Assembly (NCBI GenBank): GCA_963703345.1
Contig: OY969814.1
Span: 544,001-608,000 of the forward strand
DNA length: 64,000 nucleotides
Origin: an uncultured Chloroflexia bacterium
Lineage (GTDB): Bacteria; Chloroflexota; Dehalococcoidia; DSTF01; JALHUB01
Reading direction: 5' to 3'
Both the position numbers and the translations under genes were made by a program. Shown in pieces: positions 24,379-50,902 of this stretch. How positions within the stretch are numbered: position 1 is the stretch's first letter; each line of letters opens with the position of its first letter. Under the pieces are notes generated by a model. That model searched no databases and was not told the DNA's origin. It worked only from the letters and a program-made list of their open reading frames with translations.

Positions 24379-24545
24379 TGGAGGGCCGTGAGGGATTCGA
24401 ACCCTCGACTCCCGGATTAAAAGTCCGTTCGCCGTTCGGCCCGCACCCGGCGCTGCTCGCCGAATCTGCGGGAAGGGTCAGATGGCGCTCTGCGAGGTCG
24501 AATCCTGCGGTCTTGCCCGTGTGACATCTGACGACCGGATTGTAC
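24379..24545 (-). repeat. tRNA-Lys 3' fragment (24379-24427) plus type A arm
   Basis: 49 nt identical to the tRNA 3' half; the whole 167 bp aligns without net indel to 45399-45565. Confidence 0.95.
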
Positions 24546-24634
24546 GCAGCAGCGAGGTGAAGCCGCAAGGCGCGCTTCTACTGCGGTGCCAGCCGCTACC
24601 AGGGAGGCTTCTCGAGGTGTAGAATAGGCTCCTT

Positions 24635-24808
24635 ATGGAGCCGCGCATACAGTACGCTAAGACCACCGACGGCGTGAGCATCGCCTTCTGGACGATGGGA
24701 GAAGGCACGCCCTGCGTGCACATGCCAAATCTTCCATACAGCCACATCCGACTGGAGTGGCAAGACCCCGGCTGGCGCCGCTGGTATGAGCGGCTGGCCG
24801 ACAAGAGG
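24635..24808 (+). pseudogene. 5' fragment of a hydrolase-cyclase fusion gene
   Basis: MEPRIQYAKTTDGVSIAFWTMGEG, similar to the N-terminus encoded at 18021. Confidence 0.75.
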
Positions 24809-24829
24809 AATTCGTTCTCGTTCTCGTGT

Positions 24830-24906
24830 GCGCTCGTAGCTCGGCTGGATAGGGCGCAGCCCTGCGGAGGCTGAGGTCATGGGTTCGAATCCCGCCGAGC
24901 GCGCCA
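24830..24906 (+). tRNA. tRNA-Arg(GCG), probably degenerate
   Basis: 77-nt cloverleaf: GCGCTCG/CGAGCGC acceptor, CAGCC-CTGCGGA-GGCTG anticodon arm, TTCGAAT, CCA. G at conserved A14 and an A-C mismatch in the T-stem. Confidence 0.8.
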
Positions 24907-25026
24907 CCTTCGCCCACAATCACCAAGAGCGGCAGGAGCCTTGCCCACGTGGGTCGGCGACCTGCCGTTAAGCCCCTATGGGGTCGTCTCCTGAGGAGAC
25001 GATGGGGGACAGGCAAGGAGGTTTCG

Positions 25027-25326
25027 ATGCGAAAGGTGACACTGCTCTACTGGATAGTGGTAGGCGCGTTCCTAGCGTTCGCGCTGGAGGTCTTCTCCGG
25101 CTTCGTCCTCTGGTTGGCCTTCGAGACCGGCCCCGGCTTTGGCGGACGGCGCGGTCTTGCCGGCGTTGAACCGCCCGGTCGGCAGGAGTTCATGCTCATC
25201 AGCCGCCAGAACTGGCTCAATATCCACGACTGGACGGCGGTGGCGCTGATGGTCATCGTTCTCTTTCACTTGATACTCCACTGGCGGTGGATAGTGAACA
25301 CCAGCCGCCGTCTCTTGGCCGGCTAG
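25027..25326 (+). CDS. DUF4405-like membrane protein
   Basis: FSGFVLW...WLNIHDW...HLILHWRWI; GGAGG RBS. Confidence 0.8.
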   Translation: MRKVTLLYWIVVGAFLAFALEVFSGFVLWLAFETGPGFGGRRGLAGVEPPGRQEFMLISRQNWLNIHDWTAVALMVIVLFHLILHWRWIVNTSRRLLAG

Positions 25327-25334
25327 GGGAAGGT

Positions 25335-25685
25335 GGTGGGGATGGCGTCATGGCCGCCTTCACCTCAGCTCGCCACGCCATCGGGTGCGCTCTCCGCTGC
25401 AATGCGGTGACGGAAGGGACTGGGCTCCAGTTGCATCTTGGCATCCACGCCGGTGACGTCATTCGCGAGGGGAACAACGTCTACGGCGGAGCGGTCAACA
25501 TCGCGGCCCGTATAGCAGGGTCTTCCGCTCCCGGCGAAATCCTGGCATCCGACATCGTGCGCGGTCTGGCTCGCACCTCTGCCAGCGTGTCGTTTGATGA
25601 CCGTGGGGAGCACGTACTAAAGGGTGTTGGTGAGCCGCAGCGGCTGTACGAGGTGCAATGGCACCCCGCATTGGACGAGCCGTGA
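25335..25685 (+). pseudogene. 3' fragment of a class III cyclase gene
   Basis: GDGVMAAF, GIHAGD, VNIAARI, LKGVGEPQRLYEV; no start codon or RBS. Confidence 0.8.
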
Positions 25686-25816
25686 GGAAGCGATGACGGC
25701 AGCCCATAGCGGCCGACTGGACGTTCTATGCGCCAGAGTGTCGTTATTCTGTCCGAATCCGGGGCCAGTCGACCGTGTATGATTACGGTTATCCACGGGT
25801 TCAGAGGGCTCGACGG

Positions 25817-25887
25817 TTCAGATTGGGAAAAACCGCCTTGGGTTGCGCGAGCGATTCGAGCCCCTGACTCCCGGATTGGAATTCCGG
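25817..25887 (-). repeat. Degenerate fifth tRNA-Lys 3' fragment
   Basis: GAGCGATTCGAGCCCCTGACTCCCGGATTGGAATTCCGG versus GAGGGATTCGAACCCTCGACTCCCGGATTAAAAGTCCGG; its flank resembles 24358-24378. Confidence 0.65.
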
Positions 25888-26100
25888 CGGTCAAGTGAGA
25901 GAGACCGCCGAAGAATAGACCAGCTACTGGATGCCCCAATCGTATCTGGCCGGCGCTTTCCGAAGATCAACACTCCAATAATTAGGGTGTTATAATCGTC
26001 GAATCCGGCGGTCACGGTTGGCTTTTTGGGGCAGGATTTGAGACGTGGGCTACGAGGAGGTCGCCCCTGAGGAGGGTTTTTGAACCTGGCGAGAGGCTTT

Positions 26101-26294
26101 TGGAGGGCCGTGAGGGATTCGAACCCTCGACTCCCGGATTAAAAGTCAGAGCCTGTACCGCCGGACCTTCAGCTCCGCCCGCAGATTCGAATTCCGCCGT
26201 TTTAGCCGCCTGGCCAGACCGGATTCTCGTCGAGTCCAGTGCTCAGGTTCAGGTGCCCTCCGGAGTACCGGATTCGACGCAGCAATTGTACGCG
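26101..26294 (-). repeat. tRNA-Lys 3' fragment (26101-26147) plus type B arm
   Basis: 47 nt identical to the tRNA; 194 bp collinear with 42632-42825. Confidence 0.95.
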
Positions 26295-26433
26295 AATCTT
26301 CCCACTACTTCAACGATGACTCCGGTGCTCACGTTGGAGCGGTTAGCGAAGAGAGTACCGACCGGAGAGACAGTATCCGTGTCTCTCCAAGCAACTCGGG
26401 CAGGGGCGATGCCAGGTGGGGGGCAGGCCAAGG

Positions 26434-26919
26434 CTATGCCGACCTCTTCCCGTCAGCACTGGGGGCGCTGACGGCCGCTAGCTCACCCGCGATCCTGCCG
26501 GCAGCAGCCGGCAGAGCCCTCTCCACCTCCGGTGTGAACTGCTCGCCGAATGTGTAGGGGTCCTTGACGGCGACCACATATATGAGGAGCTCCTGCGGCA
26601 GCGGCAAGGACAGCTGGCGGGCCAGCTCCAGGGCCAGACGCAGGTTAACGCCGTGGCTTAGCCAGGCGCAACTCCCGCCCAACTCGTCTTCTCGCAGCCG
26701 GCGCACCTGACCGACTGCACTCCCATCACAGATGCTGTCGATGATGACGCCCCGATCGTAGTGAGTCAGAAGCTGAACGGTCTTGAGGCCTGCAACAGCC
26801 GCCTCTACCAGGTCTGCCCTGGGATCGCCGAGCAACTCATGAACACGCCGCGCCACCGAGAGGCCGGTGGCGTCGTCGGAGAGGATGGGGTTGCCCAGTC
26901 CCAGGATCAGTGTTTTCGT
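26434..26919 (-). CDS. Hydrogenase maturation protease (apparent ACG start)
   Basis: The in-frame N-terminus (T)KTLILGLGNPILSDDATG extends the ORF to an ACG at 26919, downstream of GGAGAG. Confidence 0.85.
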   Translation of the reverse strand, partial: TKTLILGLGNPILSDDATGLSVARRVHELLGDPRADLVEAAVAGLKTVQLLTHYDRGVIIDSICDGSAVGQVRRLREDELGGSCAWLSHGVNLRLALELARQLSLPLPQELLIYVVAVKDPYTFGEQFTPEVERALPAAAGRIAGELAAVSAPSADGKRSA

Positions 26920-26920
26920 T

Positions 26921-28408
26921 CTAGTCTCTCCGCAGTTCCTGAACTATCTTCCCCTGAGCATCGTAAATGTTCACTATGAGGGGCATCTCGCCGGGCAATG
27001 CGTGCGTGGCGCAGCCGAAGCAGGGGTCGTACGCGCGGAACGCCATTTCGATGCGGTTGAGGAGCCCCTCGGTGACCACCGTCCCCTTCTTGATCAGCCC
27101 CTGGCTGGCTTTCTTCACCGACATCGCGATGGCACCGTAGTTGTGAGCGGTGCCAACGATGAGGTTGACCTTGCGGGCGACCCCTCTCTCGTCGGCGTGG
27201 TAGTGGTGGATGAGAACACCGCGCGGCGCCTCGACTACGCCTACGCCCTCGCCTGGCGTGGCGGAAGGGATGGTACGAACGTCTGGGCTGGTGATCTCCG
27301 GGTCTGTGGCCAGTTCCACCATGCGCTCGGCGGCGTAGACGAGTTCGACGAGGCGGGCCCAGTGCGTCGCCAAGGTAGCGTGCACCGGCTTGCCCCCCAG
27401 GGTCGCGTACATGCGCTCGTACTCGGCCTGGGCAAGGGGGGTGGCCATCCCATCGGCGGCGTTGAGACGGGCCAAGGGCGCTACGCGGTAGATGCCACTG
27501 TCCTTGCCGTCAACGAGCCCCTGCCAGCCCAGCTTCTTCAAGTAGGTGAACTTGAGGTAGGTCCACGGTTCCACGTGCTCGGCTATGTGCTCCAGGTACT
27601 CCGACGGGTCGAACTTGAGGAACTCCTTCCCCTCCGGGTCCACCACCCGCAGCATGCCGTCGTAGAAGTTCGCTTTGTTGTCGGCGTCCACCAGGCCCAT
27701 GTAGTAGGTCTTGTGGGTGAAGGTATCGGATAGGATCATGTCAAGGTAGGTCTTGTTGGCCAACACCACGTCATCGAGGATCTTGAGAGAGAGCTTGCCG
27801 AATTCCACCGCCGAGCGGGCGATCCCCTCGATCTTGGCCCGCTCCTCCTCAGTGATGGGCTTGCTGACTCCGCCGGGAAGGCCGCAGACTGGGTGAATGT
27901 ACTTCCCCCCGATCATCGCCACCACTTCGTGGCAGAGCGCGAGGTGCTTCAGCACCTCGCCTCCGATCTCCAGGCCTACCTTTTGCACCACGCCGATGAT
28001 GTTTCGCTCAGCCGGAGGAGCGTCAGGACCTACCACAAAGTCAGGACCGCTCAGAGCATAGAAGTGCGTGGCGTGGTCGGCCACGAAGAAGGCGCTATAC
28101 AAGAGCTCTCGGAGCTTCTTGGCCGCCGGAGGGGGGTCTACCTTGAAGACGGCATCCAGAGTCTTGGCGGAGGCGATGTGGTGAGCCGACGGGCACACGC
28201 CGCAGATGCGCGAGGTGATGATCGGCAGGTCTTCGATCTGCCGGCCCTCGCAGAACTTCTCGAATCCCCTCAACTCAGGTACCTGAAAGTAGGCGTTTTC
28301 CACATCCCCCTCCTTGTCGAGGAAGATATCGATGCGGCCATGGCCTTCAAGGCGAGTGATCGGTTCGATGACTATGCGTCTTGTGGTGGGTTCGGAATCA
28401 GTGCTCAT
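26921..28408 (-). CDS. mvhA: [NiFe] hydrogenase large subunit, group 3c-like
   Basis: ITRLEGH, RGFEKF, SRICGVC, EAPRG, RAYDPCFGCATH. Confidence 0.93.
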   Translation of the reverse strand: MSTDSEPTTRRIVIEPITRLEGHGRIDIFLDKEGDVENAYFQVPELRGFEKFCEGRQIEDLPIITSRICGVCPSAHHIASAKTLDAVFKVDPPPAAKKLRELLYSAFFVADHATHFYALSGPDFVVGPDAPPAERNIIGVVQKVGLEIGGEVLKHLALCHEVVAMIGGKYIHPVCGLPGGVSKPITEEERAKIEGIARSAVEFGKLSLKILDDVVLANKTYLDMILSDTFTHKTYYMGLVDADNKANFYDGMLRVVDPEGKEFLKFDPSEYLEHIAEHVEPWTYLKFTYLKKLGWQGLVDGKDSGIYRVAPLARLNAADGMATPLAQAEYERMYATLGGKPVHATLATHWARLVELVYAAERMVELATDPEITSPDVRTIPSATPGEGVGVVEAPRGVLIHHYHADERGVARKVNLIVGTAHNYGAIAMSVKKASQGLIKKGTVVTEGLLNRIEMAFRAYDPCFGCATHALPGEMPLIVNIYDAQGKIVQELRRD

Positions 28409-28452
28409 AGTACCCCTTGCGTCATGACCGACAGAACGCGCTGAGCTCTTGC

Positions 28453-29448
28453 TTATTCAGCCGTTGCCCTGTCAAAAGAAAGGCTCTCAGTCTGACGGAC
28501 CCGTCGCAGCATTGACGCCGGCAGGCCGAAGAGATAGCAGACCCCTAGGAGATCAGGGAGTGTACTCGCTACCCGCTCGATCTCGTCCGGATCCTGAGTA
28601 TCGACGATAGAAGCCAGGGCGCTGAGAAGCTTTCCGCCCTGATCGATCACATTCGGCGGGGGCCCGTAGCAGCCCCGACACGGCATGTTGACCGAAGTGC
28701 AGGGCGCGCCACAGCCGCCCCGCGTGGCCGGGCCGGCGCAGACGATGCCTTGCTCCAGCAGGCAACGCGTCGGGTCCGGCACGATCTCATACGGCCGGTG
28801 GAAGCCCTTGATTCGCTTGTCTTCCTTAATGCGACCGCAGTCGTAGCAGACTGTCCTCTCGGACGCTCCCACGACCGAGCCCGGGGGAGGCAACTGGCCT
28901 GCCATCACGGCTTGCAACACCGCCCAGATTTGCTCCTTCACAGGCGGACAGCCCGGCACGAAGTACTCTACAGGCACCACCTGGTTCAGCGTCCGGACGG
29001 TGTCGTAGAACTCGGGCAGCGTAAGCTCTCCCTCGGGCATCTGATAGCTGAGCTGGGGACGGACGCCGTTTTCGTTGTCTGTGGACGCCGTGTCTCGGTA
29101 GACAAGGTCGAGGATGGACTCCCGGTTGGCGACGTTGGCCAGGCCCGGGATGCCGCCCGTGTGGGCGCAGGCGCCGAAAGCGACTAGCGCCTTCGACTTC
29201 TCTCTTAGCAGGTGCGCCAAGTGCTCCTGCTCAGAGTTTCTGATCGCCCCGTTGAACAGGCAGAGGTCGATGCTCTTGTCCGGCAGCGCCTCCACGTCCT
29301 TGTACTTGAAGTCCATGATGCAGGGCCAGAGAACGATGTCGAAGGCCTCGGCTACGTCCAGGATCTTAGCGTACAGCTCGACGACCGCGATCTCGCAGCC
29401 GCCACAGCTGGCGGCCCAGTACAGAGCTAGTTTCGGCTTCTGACCCAT
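28453..29448 (-). CDS. mvhG: [NiFe] hydrogenase small subunit
   Basis: ASCGGC, FGACA, VPGCPP, CRGCYG. Confidence 0.9.
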   Translation of the reverse strand: MGQKPKLALYWAASCGGCEIAVVELYAKILDVAEAFDIVLWPCIMDFKYKDVEALPDKSIDLCLFNGAIRNSEQEHLAHLLREKSKALVAFGACAHTGGIPGLANVANRESILDLVYRDTASTDNENGVRPQLSYQMPEGELTLPEFYDTVRTLNQVVPVEYFVPGCPPVKEQIWAVLQAVMAGQLPPPGSVVGASERTVCYDCGRIKEDKRIKGFHRPYEIVPDPTRCLLEQGIVCAGPATRGGCGAPCTSVNMPCRGCYGPPPNVIDQGGKLLSALASIVDTQDPDEIERVASTLPDLLGVCYLFGLPASMLRRVRQTESLSFDRATAE

Positions 29449-29466
29449 GACAACCCCCAGGCTTGG

Positions 29467-29907
29467 CTAACGCTGCTCGCTCACTGCTGTTTTCGCATCC
29501 TTCTTTAGCGGGCCCAGTTCCTTTATGGTCTTCGTGAAGTCTGCCACGACCTCGGCAAACCTGGCCCCTTCAGATGCCGAAACCCATTCCAGTCTCAGCC
29601 TCTCGGGCTCGATCCCGAAATCGCTGAGCATCTTTCTCAGCATGTGAATCCTTCTTTGTGCCTTGTAGTTTCCTTCCATATAGTGGCAATCACCCGGGTG
29701 GCAACCCCCGATCAGCACACCATCCACACCCCTAGAGAAGGCCTTCAGAATGAAGGTCGGATCGACCCTGCCACTGCACATCACTCTTATCATCCTCAGG
29801 TTGGGCGGATACTGGATTCTAGAGGTGCCTGCAAGGTCCGCGCCCGCATAGGTGCACCAGTTACAGGCAAAGCCAAGTATCAGGGGCTCAAACCCGTTCC
29901 TATCCAT
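29467..29907 (-). CDS. mvhD: Hydrogenase iron-sulfur subunit delta
   Basis: CNWCTYAGAD, RVMCSGRVD, GCHPGDCHY, WVSASEG. Confidence 0.95.
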   Translation of the reverse strand: MDRNGFEPLILGFACNWCTYAGADLAGTSRIQYPPNLRMIRVMCSGRVDPTFILKAFSRGVDGVLIGGCHPGDCHYMEGNYKAQRRIHMLRKMLSDFGIEPERLRLEWVSASEGARFAEVVADFTKTIKELGPLKKDAKTAVSEQR

Positions 29908-29935
29908 TGTCAGATCCTCTTCTCATATGCTTTCG

Positions 29936-31619
29936 CTACGCTTCCGTCAGAGCCTCTATCTGCGCCAGGATCTCTTGGTCTTCGAAATGATTCATTGTAA
30001 TCGCCCCGGATGGGCAGGCAGCCCCGCAGGTGCCGCATCCTTTGCACACCGCTTCGATGGTGCGGGCAAACGCTTTGCCATTCTCGCTGACCATCTGCAT
30101 GGCGCTATAAGGACAAAGAACGGCGCAGATGCCGCAGCCTCCACAGAGGTCCTCATTGACGGAAGAAGTAATGGCTTCAGGACTCACATGCCCTCTTTTC
30201 ATGGGTACCACTGCTTTGCCGGCGGCGGCGTAAGCCTGGAACACGGCTTCGGACACTTCGACTGGCCATCTGGCCGAGCCACATATGTAGATGCCATCCG
30301 TGGCAAATTCCACGGGCTGCAGTTTCAGGTGGGCCTCCAGGAAGAAGCCCTCCGAACTGAGGGGAACCTTGAGCATCCTGGAGATCCCCGCGTTGTCGCT
30401 CCGCGGAACAAGGGGTGTGGTCAGCACAACCATATCCGACGGAAGCTCCACCAATTTGCCTATCAACTGGTGGTAGACCCTGACACCCTTGACCCCGCCG
30501 TTCGCAACAACCTCGGGCGGGCTCCCCAGGCTGTACCTCACGAACCTGACACCCAGTTCCATCGCCTTTCGATAGTAGTCCTCGAACTCCACCCCATAGG
30601 CCATGATATCGCGATGGAGGATCCAGACGTTCGCCTCGGGGATCATTCTCCTTGATCAGCACAGCATTCTTGATCGCCGTCAGACAGCAGAACCTGCCGC
30701 AGTAGGGCCTTTCGGGGACGCGAGCGCCGACGCAGTTGATCATGACGACGTTCTTAGCCTCTACTGTATGCTGTTTCAGTCGTTCTTCCAGCTCGAGCTG
30801 AGTGAGCACGCCGTCCGTCTCACCGTAGCCGTACTGACCTGCCGGTTTGAGCTCCTCGGCGCCCACAGCGACTATGATGGTGCCGACTCTGAGCTTGCTT
30901 CCCTCCTCGCCTTGCTCCAAAATGACGTCGAAATTGCCTATGAAGCCCTTTACTTCCTTGACCTCTGTGGAGAGATGAGCCGTTATACGCTCATGGTTCC
31001 TCACCTGGTCAATGAGGGGCCCGATCAGTTCTCTGGCCTCTTTGTTGGTTGCGAAGAGTCGGTTTACATCAAGTAGCAGGCCACCGAGCTGTGCCTGCTT
31101 TTCCACCAGGTGGACCTCAAAACCCTGATTGGCCAGGTTCAGGGCTGCGGTCATTCCGGCCACGCCGGACCCGATTACTAGAGAAGCCGGAGTGACTTCA
31201 ATCTCGATCTCTTCCAGCGGCTTCAGTAGCCTGGCCTTCGCCACCCCCATTCTAACGAGGTCTTTGGCCTTTTCGGTGGCTTCCGTGGGGAGGGTCATGT
31301 GCACCCACGAGCATTGGTCCCTTATGTTGACGAACTCGAAGAGATACTTGTTCAGGCCCGCTTCCTGACAGGCAGACCTGAACAGTGCCTCGTGGGTTCT
31401 GGGGGTACAAGATGCCACTATGACACGGTTCAGGTCGTTTTCTTGAATCTTCTTCTTTATGGACGAGATGCCTTCTTCTGAACAGGTGTAGAGGTTGTGC
31501 TCGGCATGCGCTACATTGGGCAGACTCTTCGCGTACTCCACCACTTGGGGCACGTCGACATAGCCGCCGATGTTCCTGCCACAGTGACACACAAAGACGC
31601 CAATCCGGGTATCAGGCAT
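29936..31619 (-). CDS. hdrA: Heterodisulfide reductase subunit A-like protein (split by a +1 frameshift at about 30640)
   Basis: VFVCHCG, SCTPRTHE, NIRDQCSWVH, GSGVAG; C-terminal FLEAHLKLQPV and 2x[4Fe-4S] motifs lie in the second frame. Confidence 0.85.
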
Positions 31620-34326: not shown

Positions 34327-35513
34327 CTTCTACCCCTAAGGCACTAGCAACGAATTCTGCCAGATCCATGACGGGAATCTCCACGTCGGGGCCCTTTGCT
34401 TTCCCCTTGCTCACCATCGCACACTTGAAGTGAATTTGGCATTTCGGGCAAGAAGTTATGAGGACCTCGGCGCCGGTGGATTTCGCCTCAAGCAATCGCT
34501 CAACGCGTATCTGTTTGGAGTATAAGTCGCAGTTCGTGAAGGCGCTGGTGCCGCAGCAGAGTGACTCCTCCCTGTTCCGGCCCATCTCGAGCAGTTCTAT
34601 CCCGGGGATAGCCTTCAGCACGTCCCTCGGCGCCTCATAGACCCCCAGATGCCTGCCCAGCCGACAGGGGTCGTGGTATGTGACCTTCCTCTTGACCTCT
34701 TTGAGACCGAGTCCGTCCTTGTCTATCCTGTCGGCCAGAAGTTCGCTGATGTGCTGAAGCTCGCAATCTAGTTCCACGTACTTCGGGTAGTCTTCTTTGA
34801 AGGTCCGGTAGCACTCAGCGCAGGAGAAGACAATCTTCTTCACCCCCGCCTTCTTGATCATCGCGGCGTTCTGCTCCGCCAGCGCCTTGAAGCCGTCCAC
34901 GTCTCCCGTCCAGAGCAGGTCGTGGCCACAGCACTTCTCATCCTCGCGCACGACGGGCTCTATTCCCAGCGAATTGAGAAGCCTGAGGCTCCCTCTTGCG
35001 GGCCTTGAGAGACTCGACGTCAATGTCCTCAAAGACGGGCTCAAAGTAGGGGGCACACCCGACAAAAAACAGGACGTCGCCTTCGGCAGAGACTCGAGTC
35101 CCGTCGGATAGCCACTCCAGCCGTCGCTGGGCGATGGACGAATTCGCCATCAGCCGGCTCAGAGATTGCAGTGTGCCGGAGTGGGCGCAGGCTCCATGCT
35201 GACCACGATTTGACGCCAAGGCCCTGGTCTTCTGAATGAAGAGGGGATAGTCGACATCTGAGGGGCATTTAGAACTACAAGCGTAGCAGGTCAGGCAGGA
35301 GAAGAGCTCGCGAGCGTAAACCAGGTCATCCTCGAGGCCAAGTAGAGCTTTCTCGACCATCACTCGCGGGGAGTAGGCCGGGTTATGCCTTGAAACCGGG
35401 CACGAGCCCGAGCACTTGCCACACTCCAGGCAATAGTATGCCTTGGTCTCATTGATGACTTGCTCCAGGCGAGGGTGTGCCTTCGTCTCCTTGACAACTT
35501 GCTCTAGCGTCAA
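34310..35513 (-). CDS. HdrD/GlpC-like Fe-S oxidoreductase (split by a +1 frameshift at about 35001)
   Basis: Two CxxCxxCxxxCP motifs, FFVGC; then CCG, YHDPC and SCPKC in the second frame. Confidence 0.85.
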
Positions 35514-37917: not shown

Positions 37918-37927
37918 CGGCACCCTC

Positions 37928-41488: not shown

Positions 41489-41930
41489 CGCCGGCTCCTC
41501 TTTCGAGGCAGACCTCAAGTCCGTCCCGTCGATTCCGATGGCCTGCCTATCAGAGGCTGAATGAGCGGGCGATGTCGGCCCGGTCACCGATCGCTTCGCC
41601 ACACTGGCCGTCGGAATCGAGGTCGTCATACTAGCGGCTGTCACATCCTGCATACGCTCATCACCTCCTGCAGTATCTGACCGTAGATGTCGGGAAAGGT
41701 GTAAGCACCTTGAGCGAGGCGGCGACAGAGGATGCTTTTGCGAAGAGGGACCTGATCTTCTATTACGACGAGCGCGCCACCGCTCAGCCGTACTGCCAAC
41801 GAGCGTCTCTTCAAGATAAAGATTCCCCACCTTTGCTTCGCTGACGGGAATGATGGTCACCAATGGCAGAGCCGGGACGCCGACTGTCTCTCTCCAGCTC
41901 TGGCCTATCGATAAATCTAGAAGCCGCCCC

Positions 41931-41995
41931 CTCTAGGTATTTATGCTTAGACCCCTCTAAGTATTTATGCTTAGTCTCTAGGTATTTATGCCTAG
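41931..41995. promoter_or_regulatory. Three tandem 20-bp palindromic boxes CTCTARGTATTTATGCYTAG
   Basis: Copies at 41931, 41955 and 41976; each contains the near-inverted repeat CTARGTAT-TT-ATGCYTAG. Confidence 0.7.
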
Positions 41996-42283: not shown

Positions 42284-42631
42284 CCATCATAATGATTTAG
42301 AGTTCGGGCTCGGGCCGGGTGGCCAGCGAAGAAGACGCCGCCCGGAGGGCAGTTTTCGTATCTCCTCAAGGGCTCCGGACAGCCGTGATTCGATGCGAAT
42401 CCCGGACTTAGAGTCTGGCACTCTGCCTGGAGAGATGAGGGAAGAGGAGAACGCTCACAAGCGACGGCAATCGTATCTGTTTCAGTGGTCTCAGAAGGCT
42501 GGAGGGGTTCGAACGTCAGGCCTGAAAACTTCGAGTCCGGTGCTCAGATTGGCTCTTTGGGGCGATAATTGGAGGCGTAAGCGAAGAAGAGTCCACGCTA
42601 GAAGGCCGAAATCGAATCTGAAAATGGCCTC

Positions 42632-42825
42632 TGGAGGGCCGTGAGAGATTCGAACCCTCGACTCCCGGATTAAAAGTCAGAGCCTGTACTGCGGAGCCTT
42701 CAGGCCCTACCGCAGATTCGAATTCCGCCGTCTTGACCGCCTGGACCGACCGATTTCTTATCGAGTCCAGTGCTCAGGCTTGAGAGCCCTCTGGAGCACC
42801 GGATTCAACGCAGCAATTGTATGCG
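42632..42825 (-). repeat. tRNA-Lys 3' fragment (42632-42678, one mismatch) plus type B arm
   Basis: Collinear with 26101-26294. Confidence 0.95.
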
Positions 42826-42833
42826 CTAAGTCC

Positions 42834-42869
42834 CGCGATTCCAGACGGCGGCCGCCGTCTGGAATCGCG
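42834..42869. repeat. Perfect 36-bp spacerless palindrome
   Basis: CGCGATTCCAGACGGCGG|CCGCCGTCTGGAATCGCG. Confidence 0.9.
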
Positions 42870-42919
42870 ACCCGGAGATGGCGGTCCTGGGTTGCCCCTC
42901 GCCGCTCTCCCAAATGTGG

Positions 42920-42986
42920 ACGGAACATTGACACCCCACAGGTCCTCGGTGGTCTTCACCACGAGTACGAGTGGGTGGCCGCTTGA
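42920..42986 (+). pseudogene. C-terminal remnant of an rve (integrase core) transposase
   Basis: VLGGLHHEYEWVAA-stop, a typical C-terminus for this family. Confidence 0.6.
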
Positions 42987-43106
42987 CTTGCGCAGATACG
43001 GATGTAATATTGTTGCCCCACAGCCCGAAGCGAAGGATGTCCACATGGTCTGGTTCCGCGCCGGCCGCTGCTATCTCATCGACTTCGTCAATCCGTAATA
43101 GGAGTC

Positions 43107-44399
43107 TTGATCTTGAAACCTTCCTTCTTGCGGATGAGAAGGCTTTACCGTCTTCTCATTGCCGGTAAGTATCAACCCTATGTCTTCGAGGAAGCTACCC
43201 CGGACCTTCCGAATAGTCTCGGTGACATCGGGCTCTATCTCCACATCCCTTTCTGCAAACAGATCTGCCCATTCTGTCCTTACAATAAGGTCTTGCTCTA
43301 CGGTCAGGATGTGGACGCATACGCAGAAGCAGTCAAGAAAGAAGTCGAAATGCACCGGGAGAGGCTGGAGGCCTCAACCGTCACTTCACTATATGTTGGG
43401 GGAGGCACTCCATTGGCCTCCCCAAAGCAACTCCTGGACCTGATAGCTTTCTTGACGCGCTCTTTCCGAATCGGCGCAGAAATTGGAGTGGAGGTTCACC
43501 CGAGTGATGCCAGTGTGGAAAACCTCTCAGCCCTTAGAAGGAGTGGAGTGAATCTCTTAAGCCTTGGCGTTCAAAGCTTCCAAGACGATCTCCTGCAAAG
43601 GATCTCCCGACCATATGACGCGGAGAACGCCAAGGAGGCCCTGGCCAATGCTATGAGTGCTGACTTCGACTCGGTCGATGTGGACCTTATGTTTGGCCTA
43701 CCCGGCGAGACCGAGGACCAACTCGAGCATGATGTGGAGTACGCCTTCCAAGCGGGCATCGGGCAGTTGTCGGCGTATCCCTTGATTGTATTCTCATTTA
43801 CGAAGATGCTGGAGATTCTGGCCAGGAGTGGCACTCGGAAGCCAAGCTGGTGGCAAGAGAGGAAGATGCTTCAGATCATCGAGGAGCTTTCGAAAACCTA
43901 CGGCTATGAAAGAACCTCGATCTGGACATGGACGAAGAAAGAGAAGGCGCAGTATACCTCAGTTACCAGGCAGAACTTCGTGGGCTTCGGGGCTGGAGCG
44001 GCTAGCCGCTTCAGCAACGTTTTCTATTCCAACACCTGTTCGGTGAGCGAGTACGTAAAGGCCGTTGCCGCTAGAAAGCTGCCAATCGCTCTTTGCACCT
44101 CCCTGGACGAAAAGGACCAGATAGCCTGGTGGCTGTTTTGGGCTGCCTACAGGATGTCGATTGGCAGGCAAGAGTTCAAACGTGTGTTCAATCGCGAGCT
44201 AAATGGGAAGTTTAGGCTCTATCTGAAGGCGCTCCAATACTTGGGGATTCTAAAGGAGGAGGGCACCGAGTACCGGCTGACTGACAATGGTGGCTTCCTC
44301 TTTCACTTGGTGGAACAGGGCTATTCGCTGGACTTCCTCGATGGAATGTGGGGTACCCTTTCTTCAGAAGCTTGGCCGAAGAGGTTAGTGCTAGGTTGA
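43107..44399 (+). CDS. HemN-like radical SAM protein
   Basis: LYLHIPFCKQICPFCPY, YVGGGTP, SLGVQSF, DLMFGLPG. Confidence 0.9.
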   Translation: MILKPSFLRMRRLYRLLIAGKYQPYVFEEATPDLPNSLGDIGLYLHIPFCKQICPFCPYNKVLLYGQDVDAYAEAVKKEVEMHRERLEASTVTSLYVGGGTPLASPKQLLDLIAFLTRSFRIGAEIGVEVHPSDASVENLSALRRSGVNLLSLGVQSFQDDLLQRISRPYDAENAKEALANAMSADFDSVDVDLMFGLPGETEDQLEHDVEYAFQAGIGQLSAYPLIVFSFTKMLEILARSGTRKPSWWQERKMLQIIEELSKTYGYERTSIWTWTKKEKAQYTSVTRQNFVGFGAGAASRFSNVFYSNTCSVSEYVKAVAARKLPIALCTSLDEKDQIAWWLFWAAYRMSIGRQEFKRVFNRELNGKFRLYLKALQYLGILKEEGTEYRLTDNGGFLFHLVEQGYSLDFLDGMWGTLSSEAWPKRLVLG

Positions 44400-44438
44400 G
44401 GATCAGCTTTCGAATGGGCGAAAGGGCCCTCCCCGATC

Positions 44439-44621
44439 ATGCAATACGAGGAAGATGGCTTCAGAGAGATCCAACGGAGCTCCACTAAGTTTGGCGCGCT
44501 GGGCAGCCGAAGCGGATGGTGGGGCGTCAGCAGCGCGGCGGAGGCCTTCCTGGACCAGCTAGTCACCTGGCGAGAACTCGGCTTTAACATGTGTTGGCAG
44601 GCGATTCTTCAGAGGACCTAG
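44439..44621 (+). pseudogene. DNA photolyase internal fragment
   Basis: GWWGVSSAAEAFLDQLVTWRELGFNMC. Confidence 0.6.
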
Positions 44622-44788
44622 ATGCGGAAAATGGAGCCAGGGAGCAAACCTGCCGCTCCTTCTGCATGACATTCTCCTGCAAATGCCGGTTGAAGTTGTC
44701 CGCGTCACTGGATAATCCCATCTCCGGACCTCATAATAGAAGTCTACGGTGGCAGATTAGCCAAGAACGCCAGAAAGAAGGAGTAATC

Positions 44789-45187
44789 ATGAAAGGATTC
44801 AACACAAATATAGAAAAGGACACGCTGGAGAATAGAGACTTTCGCAGGGTGCTGTACACCGGCAGGCACAGCCAATTGGTACTGATGAGCCTTCGACCGA
44901 AAGAAGAAATCGGTATGGAAACCCATCTAGACAATGATCAGTTCTTTCGTTTTGAAAAGGGTGAGGGGAAGTGCATCATAGACGGTAATGAATATGCCCT
45001 GAGGGATGGGTCGGTAATTGTTGTGCCAGCTAGCGCCGAGCACAACATAATCAACACCTCCGCCAACCAGGATTTGAAGCTCTATACAATCTATTCCCCG
45101 GCCCACCATAAAGATGGGGTAGTGAGGTCGACTAAAGCAGAGGCCGAAACCGATGCGCCTGAATTTGATGGTGTAACCACCGAATAG
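44789..45187 (+). CDS. Cupin-domain protein
   Basis: FRRVLYTG, SQLVLM, EEIGMETH, HNIIN, LKLYTIYSP; AAGGAG RBS. Confidence 0.9.
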   Translation: MKGFNTNIEKDTLENRDFRRVLYTGRHSQLVLMSLRPKEEIGMETHLDNDQFFRFEKGEGKCIIDGNEYALRDGSVIVVPASAEHNIINTSANQDLKLYTIYSPAHHKDGVVRSTKAEAETDAPEFDGVTTE

Positions 45188-45398
45188 GCAACAATTCCGC
45201 CAAATATGGCAAGCGTGCTATCCGGACGCCGTAACGTCCACTCTTAGGAATTGATGACGCCGCCCTCGGGCACTGGGAGAGAACCGTGACTGATCTGGAT
45301 CACCGACTGCCGGACTGGAAATCCGGCACTCCAATCAAAAGAGGCAGGCGAAGAAGAGTCCACATTGGAGGGCCGAAATCGAATCTGAAAGAGGGCTC

Positions 45399-45565
45399 TG
45401 GAGGGCCGTGAGGGATTCGAACCCTCGACTCCCGGATTAAAAGTCCGCGAGCCATTCGGCCCACGCTCGACGCTGTTCGCCGAATCTGCGGGGAAGGTCA
45501 GATGGCGCTCTGCGAGATCGAATCCCGCGGTCTTGCCCGCGTGGCATCTGACCACCGGATTGTAC
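45399..45565 (-). repeat. tRNA-Lys 3' fragment (45399-45447) plus type A arm
   Basis: Collinear with 24379-24545. Confidence 0.95.
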
Positions 45566-45740
45566 CTTGACGAGGCGTCAACTACAAGCCGTAATACTCC
45601 TGGCTGCTTCGATGTGGAGATGCCTCCTTCTCCCATCGATGATGGACACGATCCTTCGTGCATCTTCGAGGGCGAAACGCTGTGATGCCCGATAACAGGT
45701 ACTTTACGAAACCGTCCCAGGACATGTCAACTGAAGCTCA

Positions 45741-45769
45741 TTGACTTGAGATGCCGCTTGCGGCATAGT
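45741..45769 (+). promoter_or_regulatory. tetR promoter with overlapping palindromic operator
   Basis: TTGACT-17 nt-CATAGT; palindrome ATGCCGC-TT-GCGGCAT at 45751-45766. Confidence 0.55.
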
Positions 45770-45773
45770 TGTC

Positions 45774-46448
45774 ATGATGTCAGCATCAACAGTGATTCCC
45801 GAATCAGTTTCGCGGACAGAGCGAAAGCGCGCCCGAACCCGCGCTGCCCTTATCGCCTCGGCTCGCCGTTTGTTCGCCCAGGTCGGTTTCGAGGCGACCA
45901 CCATTGCGGCGATCGCCGAGTCCGCTGACCTCGGCTTCGGCACCTTCTATCGCTACTTTCCCGACAAGGAGGCGATCCTCAATGCTGTGCTCGAAATCGG
46001 CCGCTCGGAACTTGACAAGGCGCTGACTCACCCCGACAACGAGCGGGCCGAGCCGGCAGAAGCCCTGCGCAGGCTCACGATGCGTTTTGCGCAGGCGGCA
46101 GAACGCAACTACGACGTGATGGCCTTGGGGTTTCGGATGGCCGTCGGGGGCGAGGGTGTCGGCGAGCCCATCCCACCCGACCTCAACAAAGGAGCGCTGC
46201 CGATCTTCTTTCTTCTCGGCGAACGCATCCGCCACATTATTGAGCGCGGCGTCACGGAGGGTGTGTTCGCATGTCCTGACCCGCGGCTCGCATCGCGTTT
46301 CATCACCAGCGCGCACGTTCCTTTCCTTACCCCATACACGAAGCACGACGGACGGAAGATGATCGAAGCGCTCTGCGACCTTGAACTGAGAGCGCTTGGC
46401 GGAGCGAGTGCAGCGTCGCCGCAGCGGACCAAAAGGAGAAACCGGTGA
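45774..46448 (+). CDS. TetR/AcrR family regulator
   Basis: GFEATTIAAIAESADLGFGTFYRYFPDKEAI. Confidence 0.93.
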   Translation: MMSASTVIPESVSRTERKRARTRAALIASARRLFAQVGFEATTIAAIAESADLGFGTFYRYFPDKEAILNAVLEIGRSELDKALTHPDNERAEPAEALRRLTMRFAQAAERNYDVMALGFRMAVGGEGVGEPIPPDLNKGALPIFFLLGERIRHIIERGVTEGVFACPDPRLASRFITSAHVPFLTPYTKHDGRKMIEALCDLELRALGGASAASPQRTKRRNR

Positions 46449-48346
46449 CCCCCATTAAGCTCGAGGACGAACTTGCTCTTTCTGAGAGCAGCTGGCGCCG
46501 ACGCATCATCACCCTCGCCGTGTTGCTGTTCGGAGTGGGCGTCGTCGCCGTCGCGATCTACTACGTCGCATTTAGGAACAGCGCTACCACAGCTACCCGT
46601 TCCACGGAGGAGATCCCTGTAGTCAGAGCAACGATCAGCCAGACGCTGAGCATCTCGGGCGTCGCCGATGCTCAGCTCAACAGCAATCTCACCTTCCAGG
46701 CCACGGGAAAGATCGCCGAAGTCAACGTCAAGGTGGGCGATGCCGTGCGGCAGGGCGACGTCCTCGCCAGCATCGAATCCGACGATCTGGTCAACGCCGT
46801 GTCGCAGGCGCAGGCAAATCAGCGCGCCGCTCAGCTCAAGCTCGACGATCTACTCGGCGGCTCGACCGCAGCCGAAATCGCCGCTGCCGAACAGGCGCTG
46901 GTCTCCGCACAGTCGAATCTCACCAAGGCAGAGAACGATTACGACACGCTGGTGGGCAGTGGCGCTGCAGCCGATGTCGCTGCCGCTCAACAAGCGGTAA
47001 GCGTGTCCGAAGCGCAGCTAGCGAGCGCGAGGAGCGCGCGCGCTAAGCTCGACGACACGCCCAGCGACGCTGACAAGGCAGCCGCCGAAGCAGGCGTGGC
47101 CGCGGCGCAATCCGCCCTCACCGCGGCTCAGAACAGTTCAGCCAGCGCTCAGAACACCCTGACCGCCGCCGATGCCTCGCTCAAGAGCGCGGAAACCAGC
47201 TACTGCGCCACCGATCCTGCGCCGGCGTTTTGCACCACGGCCGTCTCACCCATCTCCTCAGCCGACGCCACACTGATGACTGCTGCCCTTGGCGGTGCGC
47301 ATGCCACACTTGCATCGGGTGTCATCGCTGCAAACAGCGCTTTCCTCAATTCGCAGAACAGCGCGGACTCCGCGGCGTCGGCCGTAACCTCCGCACGGCA
47401 AGCGCTGAGATCCGCACAGGAGAAGCTCAATACCGTGAACGACGGACCGACGAGCGATGACGTTGCCGCTGCCGACGCTGCAGTAACTTCCGCCGAATCG
47501 GCCCTGACCGCCGCGCAGCAGAAGCTCGCGACTGTACAGGGCGGCACCGGTGCGCAACAATCCACGCTCCAGGCGGCCGTCCTCAGCGCCCAGGCCGCCG
47601 TCGATGCGGCCCAGGCGAAAGATGATGAAGCGCACCAGGGCGCGACAGCGAACGCCATCGCGCAGGCGCGCCAGGCCGTCGAAACCGCCGGTCTCGTAGT
47701 CGAAGCGGCGCAGATCCGCCGCCAAAACGCCCAGATCATCGCGCCCTTCGACGGTGTCGTTGCGGCCGTAAACGCTCACGTCGGAGAGATGGCCGGTGCG
47801 GCCGGTGGCTCTTCGACCGCCGCGCCTATCGTCTTGCTCACGCCGAACCTGCTTCGTTTCAAGATGAACGTGCAGGAGACCGACTACACAAACATCAAAC
47901 TCGACCAGACGGGCATGGTTGTCTTCGATGCACTCCCGGGCAGGCCGTTTGCGTTCACCATCACATCGATCAGTTCTGCCGCCATTACGGAGAGCGGGGT
48001 CGTCACGTACGAGGTCGATGCCTCTCTGACGATCCCACCCGATTCTCCCTCCCCTGCAGCCGGTATGAACGGGAACGGGGTCATCACCATCGATTCGAAG
48101 CCGAACGTTCTCGTCGTCCCGGCGCGCGCCATCAAGCGTCGCGGCGCCGATCAGATCGTCTCGGTCAAGCGGGCGAACGGCAACGTCGAGGAACAGGTGA
48201 TCACGACTGGTGTCAGCGACGTCAACAACGTGGAGGTGCTCTCCGGCCTGAGTGAAGGCGACGTGGTCGAGGCCGTCACACTGACGGCGGGGAAGGCTGG
48301 CGTCGCGGCGACGCCTCAACCCACCATGCCGAGCGGCCTGAGGTAG
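46445..48346 (+). CDS. MacA-like efflux adaptor with long Ala-rich coiled coil
   Basis: TM segment, VKVGDAVRQGDVLA, IAPFDGVV, GLSEGD. Confidence 0.88.
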   Translation: MTPIKLEDELALSESSWRRRIITLAVLLFGVGVVAVAIYYVAFRNSATTATRSTEEIPVVRATISQTLSISGVADAQLNSNLTFQATGKIAEVNVKVGDAVRQGDVLASIESDDLVNAVSQAQANQRAAQLKLDDLLGGSTAAEIAAAEQALVSAQSNLTKAENDYDTLVGSGAAADVAAAQQAVSVSEAQLASARSARAKLDDTPSDADKAAAEAGVAAAQSALTAAQNSSASAQNTLTAADASLKSAETSYCATDPAPAFCTTAVSPISSADATLMTAALGGAHATLASGVIAANSAFLNSQNSADSAASAVTSARQALRSAQEKLNTVNDGPTSDDVAAADAAVTSAESALTAAQQKLATVQGGTGAQQSTLQAAVLSAQAAVDAAQAKDDEAHQGATANAIAQARQAVETAGLVVEAAQIRRQNAQIIAPFDGVVAAVNAHVGEMAGAAGGSSTAAPIVLLTPNLLRFKMNVQETDYTNIKLDQTGMVVFDALPGRPFAFTITSISSAAITESGVVTYEVDASLTIPPDSPSPAAGMNGNGVITIDSKPNVLVVPARAIKRRGADQIVSVKRANGNVEEQVITTGVSDVNNVEVLSGLSEGDVVEAVTLTAGKAGVAATPQPTMPSGLR

Positions 48347-48348
48347 CG

Positions 48349-49131
48349 ATGATCCGGTTGAAGGGCATCTCGAAGGTCTACAAGCTCGGCTCTGAGAGTG
48401 TCCACGCTCTTCGCGGCATCGACCTGGAGATCGAGGAGGGCGAGTTCCTGGCGATCATGGGGCCCTCCGGCTCGGGCAAGTCAACGCTCATGAACATCAT
48501 CGGCTGCCTCGATCGCCCGACCGACGGCACGTACGAGCTCGACGGCGTAAACATAGGCAAGCTCAACGACTCACAGCTCGCGACGGTCCGTAATCGGCGT
48601 CTGGGGTTCGTGTTTCAGTCCTTCAACCTGCTCCCGCGCCTCGACGCTGTCAGTCAGGTGGCGATGCCACTCTCGTATCGAGGCGTCACGAACCGAAAGC
48701 AGGTCGCGAGGGTCGCGCTCAGGCTCGTCGGCCTCCAGGACCGCATGCATCATCGGCCCACGCAGCTCTCCGGCGGCCAGCAGCAGCGCGTCGCTATCGC
48801 GCGCGCGCTCGTCGGCAGTCCGGCGGTGATCCTCGCCGATGAGCCGACAGGCGCACTGGACACGAAGACCAGCCACGATGTGATGGAGATCTTCCGCAAG
48901 CTCAACGAAGAGCGCGGCGTCACGATCGCCTTCGTCACCCACGAGCACGACGTCGCGGCGTATACGCGGCGCATCGTCTCGCTGCTTGATGGCGAGATCG
49001 TCAGCGACGCGCCGAACGTCCCCGCGTACCGCCAGACTGCGGAGGCGATCTCGCACCTATCGCCACAGGCGCGACAGACCTCCACGACAACGCCGGCCGA
49101 GCGCCGGATCCTCGGAGCGACTGACGCATGA
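48349..49131 (+). CDS. ABC transporter ATP-binding protein (MacB/LolD type)
   Basis: GPSGSGKST, LSGGQQQR, ADEPTG. Confidence 0.95.
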   Translation: MIRLKGISKVYKLGSESVHALRGIDLEIEEGEFLAIMGPSGSGKSTLMNIIGCLDRPTDGTYELDGVNIGKLNDSQLATVRNRRLGFVFQSFNLLPRLDAVSQVAMPLSYRGVTNRKQVARVALRLVGLQDRMHHRPTQLSGGQQQRVAIARALVGSPAVILADEPTGALDTKTSHDVMEIFRKLNEERGVTIAFVTHEHDVAAYTRRIVSLLDGEIVSDAPNVPAYRQTAEAISHLSPQARQTSTTTPAERRILGATDA

Positions 49132-50456
49132 GCCCGAGCGAAGTCGTCATGACGGCGTTGATCGCGCTGCGCAGCAACATCCTGCGCACTCTGCTCACAA
49201 TGCTCGGCATCATCATCGGCATCAGCGCTGTTATCGTGCTGACGGCTGCGGGCCAGGGCGCGCAGAAGGGCGTTGCTGACCGCATCAAGGGCATCGGCAG
49301 CAACCTGATGTTCATTCAACCGGGCAACGGCAAGACAACCACGGGACTGTGGGTCCCCGGGCAGGGGAGCACTGCACTCTTCCTAGATGACGCCCGCGCG
49401 ATCGACGACGCCCGGATCGACGGCATCGATGCCGTCGCCGCGCAAGGCACGGCGCCCGCACCCGCCATGCCCTGGGGCGCCACCGCGATATACCGCGGCC
49501 AGAATACCAGTACGACGCTGATTGGCACGGAGACGAGCTACCAGTACGTCCGCGACTTCTACGTCGCCGAAGGCCGCTTCATCACAGAAGACGACATCAA
49601 TAAGAAGGCGCTCGTCGTCGTTCTAGGCGCGGAGGTCAAACAACAGCTTTTCGGAGACAAGGACCCTATCGGCGAGAACGTGCGCATAACCGTCGGTCCG
49701 GGGAACTACGCTGTCGGCTTCACCTTCACCGTCGTCGGTGTGATGGAGGAGAAAGGCTCGACCTCATCGACTGACCAGGACAACGTCGTGATCACGCCCC
49801 TCCCGTCCTTTCAGGCGCGCGTGCCCCTAGTCCGCAACCCACGCGGCACCACCGTCAGCCAGGTGAACATCAAGGTGACCAACCCCTCCAAGATCCCTCA
49901 GATTAAGCTGGCTATTACAGACATCCTCCGCAAGCGCCACAACCTGGCGGAAGGGACCGATAACGACTTCCTGATCCAGTCCCAGAGCGATGTCCTAGCG
50001 ACCGCCACCGCGGTCGACCGCACCCTCAGCGTGCTGCTCGTGTCGATCGCACTGATCTCGTTGATCGTCGGCGGCATCGGCATCATGAACATCATGCTCG
50101 TGTCGGTGAGCGAGCGAACGCGCGAGATTGGAATCCGCAAGGCGGTTGGGGCAAAGCGCCGCGACATCCTCCTGCAATTCATGATCGAAGCGCTGGTCGT
50201 GACATTGTTCGGGGGCCTGCTGGGGGTTGCCGTGGGCATCGGCATTACGCAGATCCTACAGCACGACTTCAACTACCACATCAATCTGCTGATCACGACA
50301 CTCAATGTCAGCGTGAGCGGAGGCACGTACGTCATCACACCGCGATGGATCTTCGCCGGTCTGGCCATGTCTGCTGTTACCGGGCTGGTCTTCGGCGTCT
50401 ACCCCGCCTGGCGCGCCGCGAGACTCGACCCGATCGAGGCGCTCCGGCGAGAGTGA
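49128..50456 (+). CDS. MacB-like ABC permease
   Basis: LLTMLGIIIG, VGGIGIMNIMLVSV, ERTREIGIRKAVGA. Confidence 0.95.
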   Translation: MSPSEVVMTALIALRSNILRTLLTMLGIIIGISAVIVLTAAGQGAQKGVADRIKGIGSNLMFIQPGNGKTTTGLWVPGQGSTALFLDDARAIDDARIDGIDAVAAQGTAPAPAMPWGATAIYRGQNTSTTLIGTETSYQYVRDFYVAEGRFITEDDINKKALVVVLGAEVKQQLFGDKDPIGENVRITVGPGNYAVGFTFTVVGVMEEKGSTSSTDQDNVVITPLPSFQARVPLVRNPRGTTVSQVNIKVTNPSKIPQIKLAITDILRKRHNLAEGTDNDFLIQSQSDVLATATAVDRTLSVLLVSIALISLIVGGIGIMNIMLVSVSERTREIGIRKAVGAKRRDILLQFMIEALVVTLFGGLLGVAVGIGITQILQHDFNYHINLLITTLNVSVSGGTYVITPRWIFAGLAMSAVTGLVFGVYPAWRAARLDPIEALRRE

Positions 50457-50827
50457 GCGTCAACTTCCCAACAGCGCCCGGATTCCATTCGCCGCGATCT
50501 GGATGAATTGCGCCTTATTCACAAGCATGGAGCGGGAATCGAGATCGGGTGCCCGCACGACGCACTCTTGGTTTGTGGCGCGGAGGCGGTCCGTGTGACT
50601 GGTGGATTGGAAGTCCGGGGGTCGATTGAGAGAAATCCGCGACGAACGAGCATCTGCGGACGCGGAATCGTATCTGAGCGACGACTCTCGAAGGTCAATG
50701 GCCCCAAAATCCTGCCCCAGAATCTTCGAATCCGGTGGTCAGGGTTGGCTTTTTCGGGCGAGAGTTCGAGGGGTAAGCGATGAAGAGGTGATGTTGAAAG
50801 CGGTTTTCGAATCTGAGAAGGGGGCTC

Positions 50828-50902
50828 TGGAGGGCCGTGAGGGATTCGAACCCTCGACTCCCGGATTAAAAGTCCGGAGCTCTGCCGCTGAGCTAACGGC
50901 CC
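50828..50902 (-). tRNA. tRNA-Lys(UUU)
   Basis: 75-nt cloverleaf GGGCCGT...ACGGCCC-T-CCA; anticodon arm CCGGA-CTTTTAA-TCCGG. Confidence 0.97.

Follow-up and report, generated by a model that had tools for sequence, protein, structure and literature searches.

We analyzed a 64,000-nt stretch of DNA from an uncultured Chloroflexia bacterium (positions 544001-608000 of the single-contig 2.28-Mb genome G000; 95.85% complete, 64.4% GC), referred to below as the window, in which partial copies of a tRNA-Lys gene divide the 26.5 kb beside it into four units. Four integrase-free units and several micro-units without genes are stacked in this region. They probably accumulated through successive site-specific insertions, and a visiting integrase is likely required for them to move.

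Structure of the tRNA-Lys array

The intact tRNA-Lys(TTT) gene, called with ARAGORN at 50828-50902 (minus strand), is the target site; pyrE and a signal peptidase gene lie upstream of it, likewise in relatives. An earlier note on this DNA had described four copies of the tRNA 3' half, all in the tRNA's orientation and ending in the anticodon stem, and the ARAGORN call and the measured identities confirm them. The copies, all on the minus strand, bound unit 4 (45399-45447, 49 nt, identical), unit 3 (42632-42678, 47 nt with one mismatch), unit 2 (26101-26147, 47 nt, identical) and unit 1 (24379-24427, 49 nt, identical, the most distal). Identity spans the CCA end, the anticodon loop and the 5' strand of the anticodon stem (47-49 nt, hereafter the core). 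From copy to copy the units measure 1673, 16484, 2720, and 5380 bp for units 1 to 4, and their cargo is unrelated from unit to unit, again as the earlier note had it. Each unit has the tRNA or a core at both ends, i.e., the att sites are retained. The target is tRNA-Lys and not ssrA, the transfer-messenger RNA gene being ∼1 Mb distant.

We scanned 56 open reading frames (ORFs) of the window, 28 of them in the array, against Pfam, and looked for recombinase remnants by tblastn with 10 recombinases of G000 and 3-4 integrases of relatives as queries. None of the 28 array ORFs matched a recombinase family, and the two methods found no integrase, conjugation or mobilization genes in the four units. 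No recombinase remnant was detected in them by tblastn either: the best match covered 29 aa (25792-25878), with E 0.67 against the whole window and E 0.004 against a piece of 600 bp. The six PF00589 and four PF00239 matches of G000 all lie outside the window, so the array holds no DsiB-type serine module. These results support the earlier view that the units are non-autonomous.

An assembly artifact, which the earlier note had raised as a concern, is unlikely because the arm copies differ from one another, relatives show the same layout, and contigs of the best-matching sequencing run (X1, a freshwater sediment metagenome that may be the source sample) match the junctions. The X1 contigs cover arm-to-cargo and tRNA-to-pyrE junctions with 0-1 differences (45424-45894, 50847-51500, and 24468-24860), and none of those listed spans a whole core with both flanks.

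Arms, module C and a conserved promoter motif

The conserved non-coding arms that the earlier note had seen at both ends of the units proved to be of three types, all on the minus strand. In the direction of the tRNA, arm A (units 1 and 4; copies ∼89% alike) or arm B (units 2 and 3; ∼82% alike) comes before each copy, and module C (70-86% alike between units) comes after each but the distal one. Arm A of unit 1 (24428-24568) carries an outward promoter-like TTGCGG-18-TACAAT (24568-24539), and arm A of unit 4 (45448-45587) carries TTGTAG-17-TACAAT (45587-45559) with an inverted half-site pair and the motifs CAGATTC and GGGCCG. Arm B of unit 2 (26148-26313) has half-site repeats and an outward promoter-like TTGAAG-17-TACAAT (26313-26285); arm B of unit 3 (42679-42830) retains TACAAT and has a palindrome (42834-42869) at the -35 position.

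Module C starts like the arm before an integrase gene (of the IntK family, see below) in the relative G010, runs for ∼150 nt and ends in a decayed core. The copy at 25817-26100 ends in a decayed tRNA-Lys 3' half (25817-25886); that at 42370-42631 likewise ends in a decayed 3' half and matches the G010 arm at 29 of 30 nt; that at 45300-45398 is short, with an internal deletion and a decayed core; and the gene-less copy next to the tRNA (50590-50827) consists of a truncated downstream arm of the integrase-element type, half-site repeats and a decayed second core with a different spacer. Since every module C closes with an additional decayed core whose 7-nt spacer differs (best seen at 25817-25886), the array also contains gene-less micro-units of ∼0.1-0.28 kb. 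A truncated downstream arm beyond the distal copy (24316-24378, minus strand) resembles the arm before the integrase gene of the relative G003 and suggests an older, unbounded unit outside the array.

A motif similar to the half-site in the anticodon stem recurs in all of the arms. Sixteen of its 21 matches in the window fall within 2155 bp of junctions, vs. 0.12 expected at the genome rate (note that the motif was drawn from these junctions, which makes the comparison partly circular). A metagenome scan for arm A returned at least 126 stretches, from which 102 distinct copies were compared. Among the matches listed, the -10 hexamer was TACAAT or TAGAAT in 90 of the 102, and TTG stood 17-18 nt upstream of it in 88, vs. 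0-5 at five control offsets; the sequences upstream of these copies fell into 63 families. Judged by these motifs, the commonest arm keeps an outward promoter-like element of the sigma-70 type. A strict promoter consensus scan listed the arm-B site of unit 2 and neither arm-A site. Arm A also contains an imperfect hairpin, which overlaps the -10 box.

In relatives, truncated arm-A promoters stand directly before the start codons of NMO and thiolase genes (L015:12713-12950 and 5767-6004; L135; L157), where they were apparently co-opted. A short GC-rich palindromic insert, possibly like a repetitive extragenic palindrome, occupies the T-loop in 22 of 53 arm-A cores from metagenome loci L124-L248.

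A candidate integrase in relatives

The comparison sets comprised 18 genomes of the family (G000 and 17 others), 75 genomes of other families, and 93 genomes of the order. One unpublished genome, G045, enters only the tallies, including those of the integrase and of arm A, and no claim is based on it. The Xer-like tyrosine integrase family behind the arms is named IntK here. The earlier note had proposed a search of the genome for a cognate tyrosine recombinase; the closest IntK homologue of G000 shares 42-47% identity, lies at tRNA-Pro and is bordered by another type of downstream arm. A candidate for the cognate enzyme was found in a relative instead. In G003, a 366-aa IntK gene starts ∼110 bp behind tRNA-Lys with the same half-site motif in front of it, a Replic_Relax relaxase is encoded in the same unit, and the far end, 24.9 kb away, is arm A plus the core. 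With its own IntK, Replic_Relax and an arm-A end, the G003 unit fits an integrative and mobilizable element (IME), and it is likely the parent or helper type of the window's units. The best NCBIfam matches of G003 IntK are of the XerC/XerD type, all below cut-off.

IntK relatives (E ≤ 1e-60) occur in 17 of the 93 order genomes. Of the 20 loci returned by the order-wide search, 13 include a complete tRNA gene (Lys, Arg-TCT, Gly-TCC, Leu-TAA, or Pro), and tRNA 3' halves precede several of the others. Most of the 37 closest named IntK loci have a tRNA just upstream, and the named records with this family are mostly Dehalococcoidia or Chloroflexia. The far-end arms of IntK elements in G042 (∼28.7 kb) and G034 (∼30.8 kb) share the promoter, half-site pair and CAGATTC layout of arm A. 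At L414:3860-3936 of G042, the far end of the IntK element is a chimeric whole tRNA with a tRNA-Arg(TCT)-like 5' half and a tRNA-Lys 3' half. An apparent unit of 2 kb in G035 with an integrase alone was discarded, as its cores have opposite orientations.

Other candidates were rejected. The integrase at genome position 1938635 was set aside as the cognate enzyme of arms A, B, and C, its kin using a different arm type; relatives 76-89% identical to it sit before tRNA-Lys halves in G002, G013, and G015. In G002, the core beside this relative is also flanked by a second integrase unrelated to it. An integrase type unrelated to IntK thus uses tRNA-Lys as well. An N-terminal fragment of the 1938635 recombinase (51% over 57 aa) lies in the window at 10610-10780. 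A resident family-wide integrase was dismissed, since no recombinase besides the XerC/XerD type is shared across the 18 family genomes. A viral helper was discarded as well: viral contigs gave 0 matches to the core or arm-A pattern, and the best IntK-like segments in them were 23-47% identical (≤34% over long alignments).

Units in relatives and evidence of movement

Arm A was found in 12 of the 17 other family genomes and in 0 of the 75 genomes of other families (E ≤ 1e-6); arm B and module C were found in six and five of the 17, respectively. The arrays of G001, G003, G006, G007, and G017 and pieces of an array in G002 have the same arms around other cargo, and the content and order of units vary among relatives. 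The earlier expectation of the same arms around different cargo in variable order was borne out, and the fixed order and cargo that would have told against it were not seen.

The tally comprises 43 complete units, 24 in family genomes and 19 in metagenome contigs. An integrase is encoded in one of the 24 and none of the 19, i.e., in one of 43 overall. Twelve of the 19 metagenome units are tRNA-proximal and 0.3-2.6 kb long, two of them near-duplicates. C-terminal integrase stubs were detected in an oxidoreductase unit and in a G012 unit (15 aa with E 0.002-0.003 against a short subject; 46 aa, 96% identical), and they point to origin by deletion. The earlier note had held that full integrase genes in homologous units would mark simple decayed islands. 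Such an observation was made in part, in the full integrase and relaxase of the G003 arm-A unit and the stubs in two relatives' units.

To measure movement, the third-codon identity of cargo was compared with that of core genes of the same genome pair. Unit 2, which carries Hdr- and Mvh-type genes, recurs in G003 at 94.9% nucleotide identity. There it lies within a tRNA-Sec island, retains arm B and a C module, and is flanked by decayed Lys cores; third-codon identity is 0.85-0.96 vs. 0.73-0.80 for four core genes. The Hdr genes also occur in G013, a member of another genus (0.81-0.96 vs. 0.56-0.60). The radical SAM gene of unit 3 has a 96% identical counterpart in a tRNA-Gly unit of G012, in another genus, where a partial arm A follows it (0.93 vs. 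0.53-0.57). An intact version of unit 1 is the tRNA-proximal unit of metagenome locus L146. A katG unit is tRNA-proximal in G006 and lies ∼0.8 Mb from tRNA-Lys in G008 (0.95 vs. 0.49-0.59), and the oxidoreductase unit starts directly at the CCA in G003 as well as in G013 (0.91 vs. 0.59). Overall, cargo is 92-98% identical across genera and core genes 72-79%. As judged from these identities, the comparisons show that units and cargo have moved between loci and genera.

G000 holds a second cluster of four Lys-core units ∼1.3 Mb from the tRNA (L001:8068-15760, contig C1 ∼1903067-1910759), with an NMO gene, a cohesin-domain gene, a micro-unit, and a periplasmic binding protein gene; ARAGORN miscalls one of its cores as tRNA-Lys. 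The cluster lies within a 47-kb stretch from tRNA-Arg(CCG) to a 27-nt copy of its 3' end, which also holds primase and terminase small subunit genes and two recombinase genes; the cluster possibly represents array DNA that another island has taken along. Dispersed arms or cores were seen in contig C1 at 83750, 179907, 658335, 1081756, 1237526, 1253409, 2277869, and 7972; a stretch of ∼13.7 kb that runs across the contig ends has arm B (2277908) on one side and module C (7972) on the other.

Cargo of the four units

Unit 1 carries pieces of a hydrolase-cyclase gene (24605-25791, plus strand), the middle of which is replaced by a second tRNA-Arg(GCG) (24830-24906; 71 of 77 nt shared with the native gene) and a DUF4405 ORF. 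The cargo of unit 2 (26434-41863, minus strand) encodes SufS, an Rrf2 regulator, HdrC/B/A-like proteins, MvhD/G/A-like [NiFe]-hydrogenase proteins and a maturation protease. Unit 3 (43023-45187, plus strand; 53.7% GC vs. 64.4% for the genome) has a 3' gene piece that is whole in G012, a HemN-like radical SAM gene and a cupin gene. Unit 4 (45774-50456, plus strand) encodes a TetR regulator, an HlyD/RND-type adaptor, an ABC ATPase, and a MacB/FtsX permease.

Two Hdr-cluster genes (29936-31628 and 34310-35513) look frameshift-split and are single ORFs in G003; other populations have small indels at these places. The splits reflect either assembly error or decay. Three 23-nt direct repeats upstream of sufS (41928-41995) are kept in G003 and are possibly regulator operators. 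A paralogous adaptor-ABC-MacB operon lies at 57922-61866, its DNA ∼67-75% identical to the unit 4 cargo. Two short repeats at 42880-43026 recur at several other places in the genome, and one of them ends a reading frame that resembles an insertion sequence transposase C-terminus.

Comparison with known systems

Cis-mobilizable elements (CIMEs) and their three-step accretion route were defined in PMC5704250. Like the array, the CIMEs and microCIMEs of the ICESt1/ICESt3 family are tandem units at the 3' end of a gene that keep att sites and lack integrase and transfer genes; their cargo units are 1.2-13 kb and the gene-less microCIMEs 130-220 bp (PMC7563491). The tRNA-Lys(CTT) gene of Streptococcus agalactiae is likewise rich in such units, with 215 CIMEs in 303 genomes (cited in PMC7563491). 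The streptococcal CIMEs differ in other respects. Of the 43 units examined here, 42 are integrase-free and usually lie next to the tRNA, whereas the CIMEs of S. salivarius were always distal in a study that could detect CIMEs only in tandem with integrative and conjugative elements or IMEs (PMC7563491). The phylum is also another one, the integrase type here is Xer-like, the arms have a predicted outward promoter, and one unit reaches 16.5 kb.

The Dehalococcoides ssrA islands belong to the same broad lineage and are, like the array, tandem, with direct target repeats and respiratory cargo (McMurdie 2011, PMC3146451). They use ssrA and a module with the serine recombinase DsiB, in contrast to tRNA-Lys, a probable anticodon-loop crossover and a tyrosine integrase here. 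The earlier premise that these islands usually carry an integration module is weak, as 16 carry it, vs. none of the window's four units, and 15 do not, the latter having been proposed to be CIMEs (PMC3146451). As to IMEs (PMC5704250), the G003 unit is alike, with IntK, Replic_Relax and an arm-A end, whereas the window's units encode no integration or excision genes of their own. By tblastn they hold no integrase stub, though their arms match IntK ends and relatives' units do hold stubs.

The principle of CIME accretion is already published. Distinctive here are the almost complete lack of integrases among the units, their location next to the tRNA, a conserved motif for an outward promoter, a named candidate enzyme and the cross-genus Hdr-Mvh transfer. 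We found no paper on this element family among Creative Commons-licensed PubMed Central papers and bioRxiv.

Origin of the array and alternative explanations

Our best reading is tandem accretion of CIME-like units moved by visiting integrases, which we think has a good chance of being correct. Crossover in the anticodon loop is a familiar habit of tyrosine integrases. An IntK element would cross over there, restore the tRNA and leave the 3' half at its far end. The window arms match both ends of IntK elements and are rich in anticodon-stem half-site repeats, which would bind the integrase. Deletions, plausibly between repeated half-sites, would then remove the integrase and yield CIME- or microCIME-like units that keep cores and arms. 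Such units could move by riding with an IntK element (cis accretion) or by separate excision by its enzyme (trans). Independent mobilization in trans is plausible; we lean slightly against a real route for single units. The arm-A promoter may have driven the integrase on the circle and may now drive whichever gene lies downstream. Promoter function and integrase binding are both predictions from motifs. The array is probably idle at present, because G000 has no close IntK.

Several observations weigh against accretion by visiting integrases. Besides the missing close IntK, G000 gave no match to a TraG/VirD4-type coupling protein or to Replic_Relax (for the latter, control genomes gave none either). 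Many arms are truncated or dispersed in G000 and relatives, downstream ends are variable, and some units have no recognizable downstream arm. The G013 Hdr genes lack arms, which shows that cargo can spread in other ways too. Circular junctions, which the earlier note had looked to, did not appear, and neither did empty sites, among the joints listed in assembled contigs of six distinct runs (X1 depth was ∼1-9 outside conserved stretches). One joint in run X9 (42552 to 45381) and the high Hdr depth in X3 and X4 come from other strains (90% likeness) and are not used as evidence. The counted units were found via arms or cores in related, non-independent genomes, and the integrase-free share is inflated because short metagenome contigs cannot hold large integrase-bearing units whole.

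A second possibility is that the units are decayed islands no longer capable of site-specific recombination. Natural transformation, with RecA-type crossover within the tRNA halves and arms, would spread their cargo, and the arms would be retained as promoters of downstream genes. We regard this as unlikely, at perhaps one chance in several. ComEC is present in G000; the integrase stubs are signs of decay in relatives; truncated and dispersed arms and cores, the T-loop insert, the arm-A promoters before NMO and thiolase genes, and the armless Hdr genes of G013 all agree with it. Allelic exchange explains poorly, however, the arm-bounded units at unrelated loci with core fragments at both ends. 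The conservation of ∼120 nt of half-sites at a fixed spacing to the anticodon loop exceeds what a promoter would need, and, by what is generally known of RecA, cores of 47-49 nt give it little length to act on between genera whose core genes are 72-79% identical.

Integrons have an adjacent IntI gene, an attI site and attC-ended, mostly single-gene promoterless cassettes. The array resembles them in outcome only, with variable recombinase-free units at one anchor. It differs from them in having no recombinase in the window, hence no IntI gene beside an attI, in boundaries that are tRNA 3' halves with arms of integrase elements, and in multi-gene units with an outward promoter motif (∼13 genes in unit 2 and four in unit 4; many units of relatives have one or two). 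Lacking a resident IntI, the array is not an integron. Of the features of CIMEs it shows the retained att sites and the lack of integrase and transfer genes, and of those of integrons that were examined, only variable content and order.

The earlier note had inferred an integron-like gene-capture array, and as a system this was not supported. In such a platform, a resident recombinase (XerC/D or the tRNA-Pro integrase) would take the tRNA for an attI and each arm with its 3' half for a cassette site, with continuous capture and reordering. All 12 complete tRNA-proximal metagenome units are indeed small and integrase-free, the cargo of some units starts right after the CCA with no downstream arm, and arm A has its imperfect hairpin. 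We nevertheless consider such a platform very improbable: no recombinase adjoins the array; G001, G005, G009, and G017 (83-92% complete) show only two XerC/XerD-type matches each; IntK scores 52-67 bits against the integron integrase model TIGR02249 (cut-off 265); the downstream arm of the tRNA-Pro integrase is of another kind; and the array's arms are those found at the ends of ordinary elements that do carry an integrase.

A role of the arms as small-RNA genes, with the promoter making an RNA whose end mimics a tRNA without a D-arm (GGGCCG would pair with the acceptor strand) and which is processed like a tRNA, can practically be discounted: the promoter is conserved, type-A copies fold into such a shape, and Rfam scored 24382-24442 as tRNA (29.5 bits, cut-off 29), but 53 copies show no compensatory change at six acceptor pairs, 22 of them have the T-loop insert, GGGCCG is also kept in front of a tRNA-Arg half with an acceptor to which it cannot pair, the type-B copies take no such fold, and one of 17 predicted arm-A pairs covaries, in a hairpin that overlaps the -10 box. 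On this missing covariation and an Rfam result of tRNA only, the non-coding RNA reading was rejected.

Implications for gene flow in the family

With a candidate enzyme (G003 IntK), a likely binding motif and ready substrates now named, the question of single vs. composite movement of integrase-less islands becomes testable. Tentatively, and with less confidence than we would give its opposite, we suggest that small promoter-bearing, integrase-free cassettes may be the working unit of gene flow in this Chloroflexota family. They would be singly excised and inserted at tRNA anticodon loops by IntK borrowed in trans from rare helpers, each incoming cassette supplying a promoter to the gene that it displaces, and whole energy modules like Hdr-Mvh would spread in this way between genera. 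If true, this would be an integron-like system without a resident integrase. The complete Hdr/Mvh-type electron-bifurcation set is recently exchanged cargo in sediment Chloroflexota, which advises caution against reading such genes as lineage traits.

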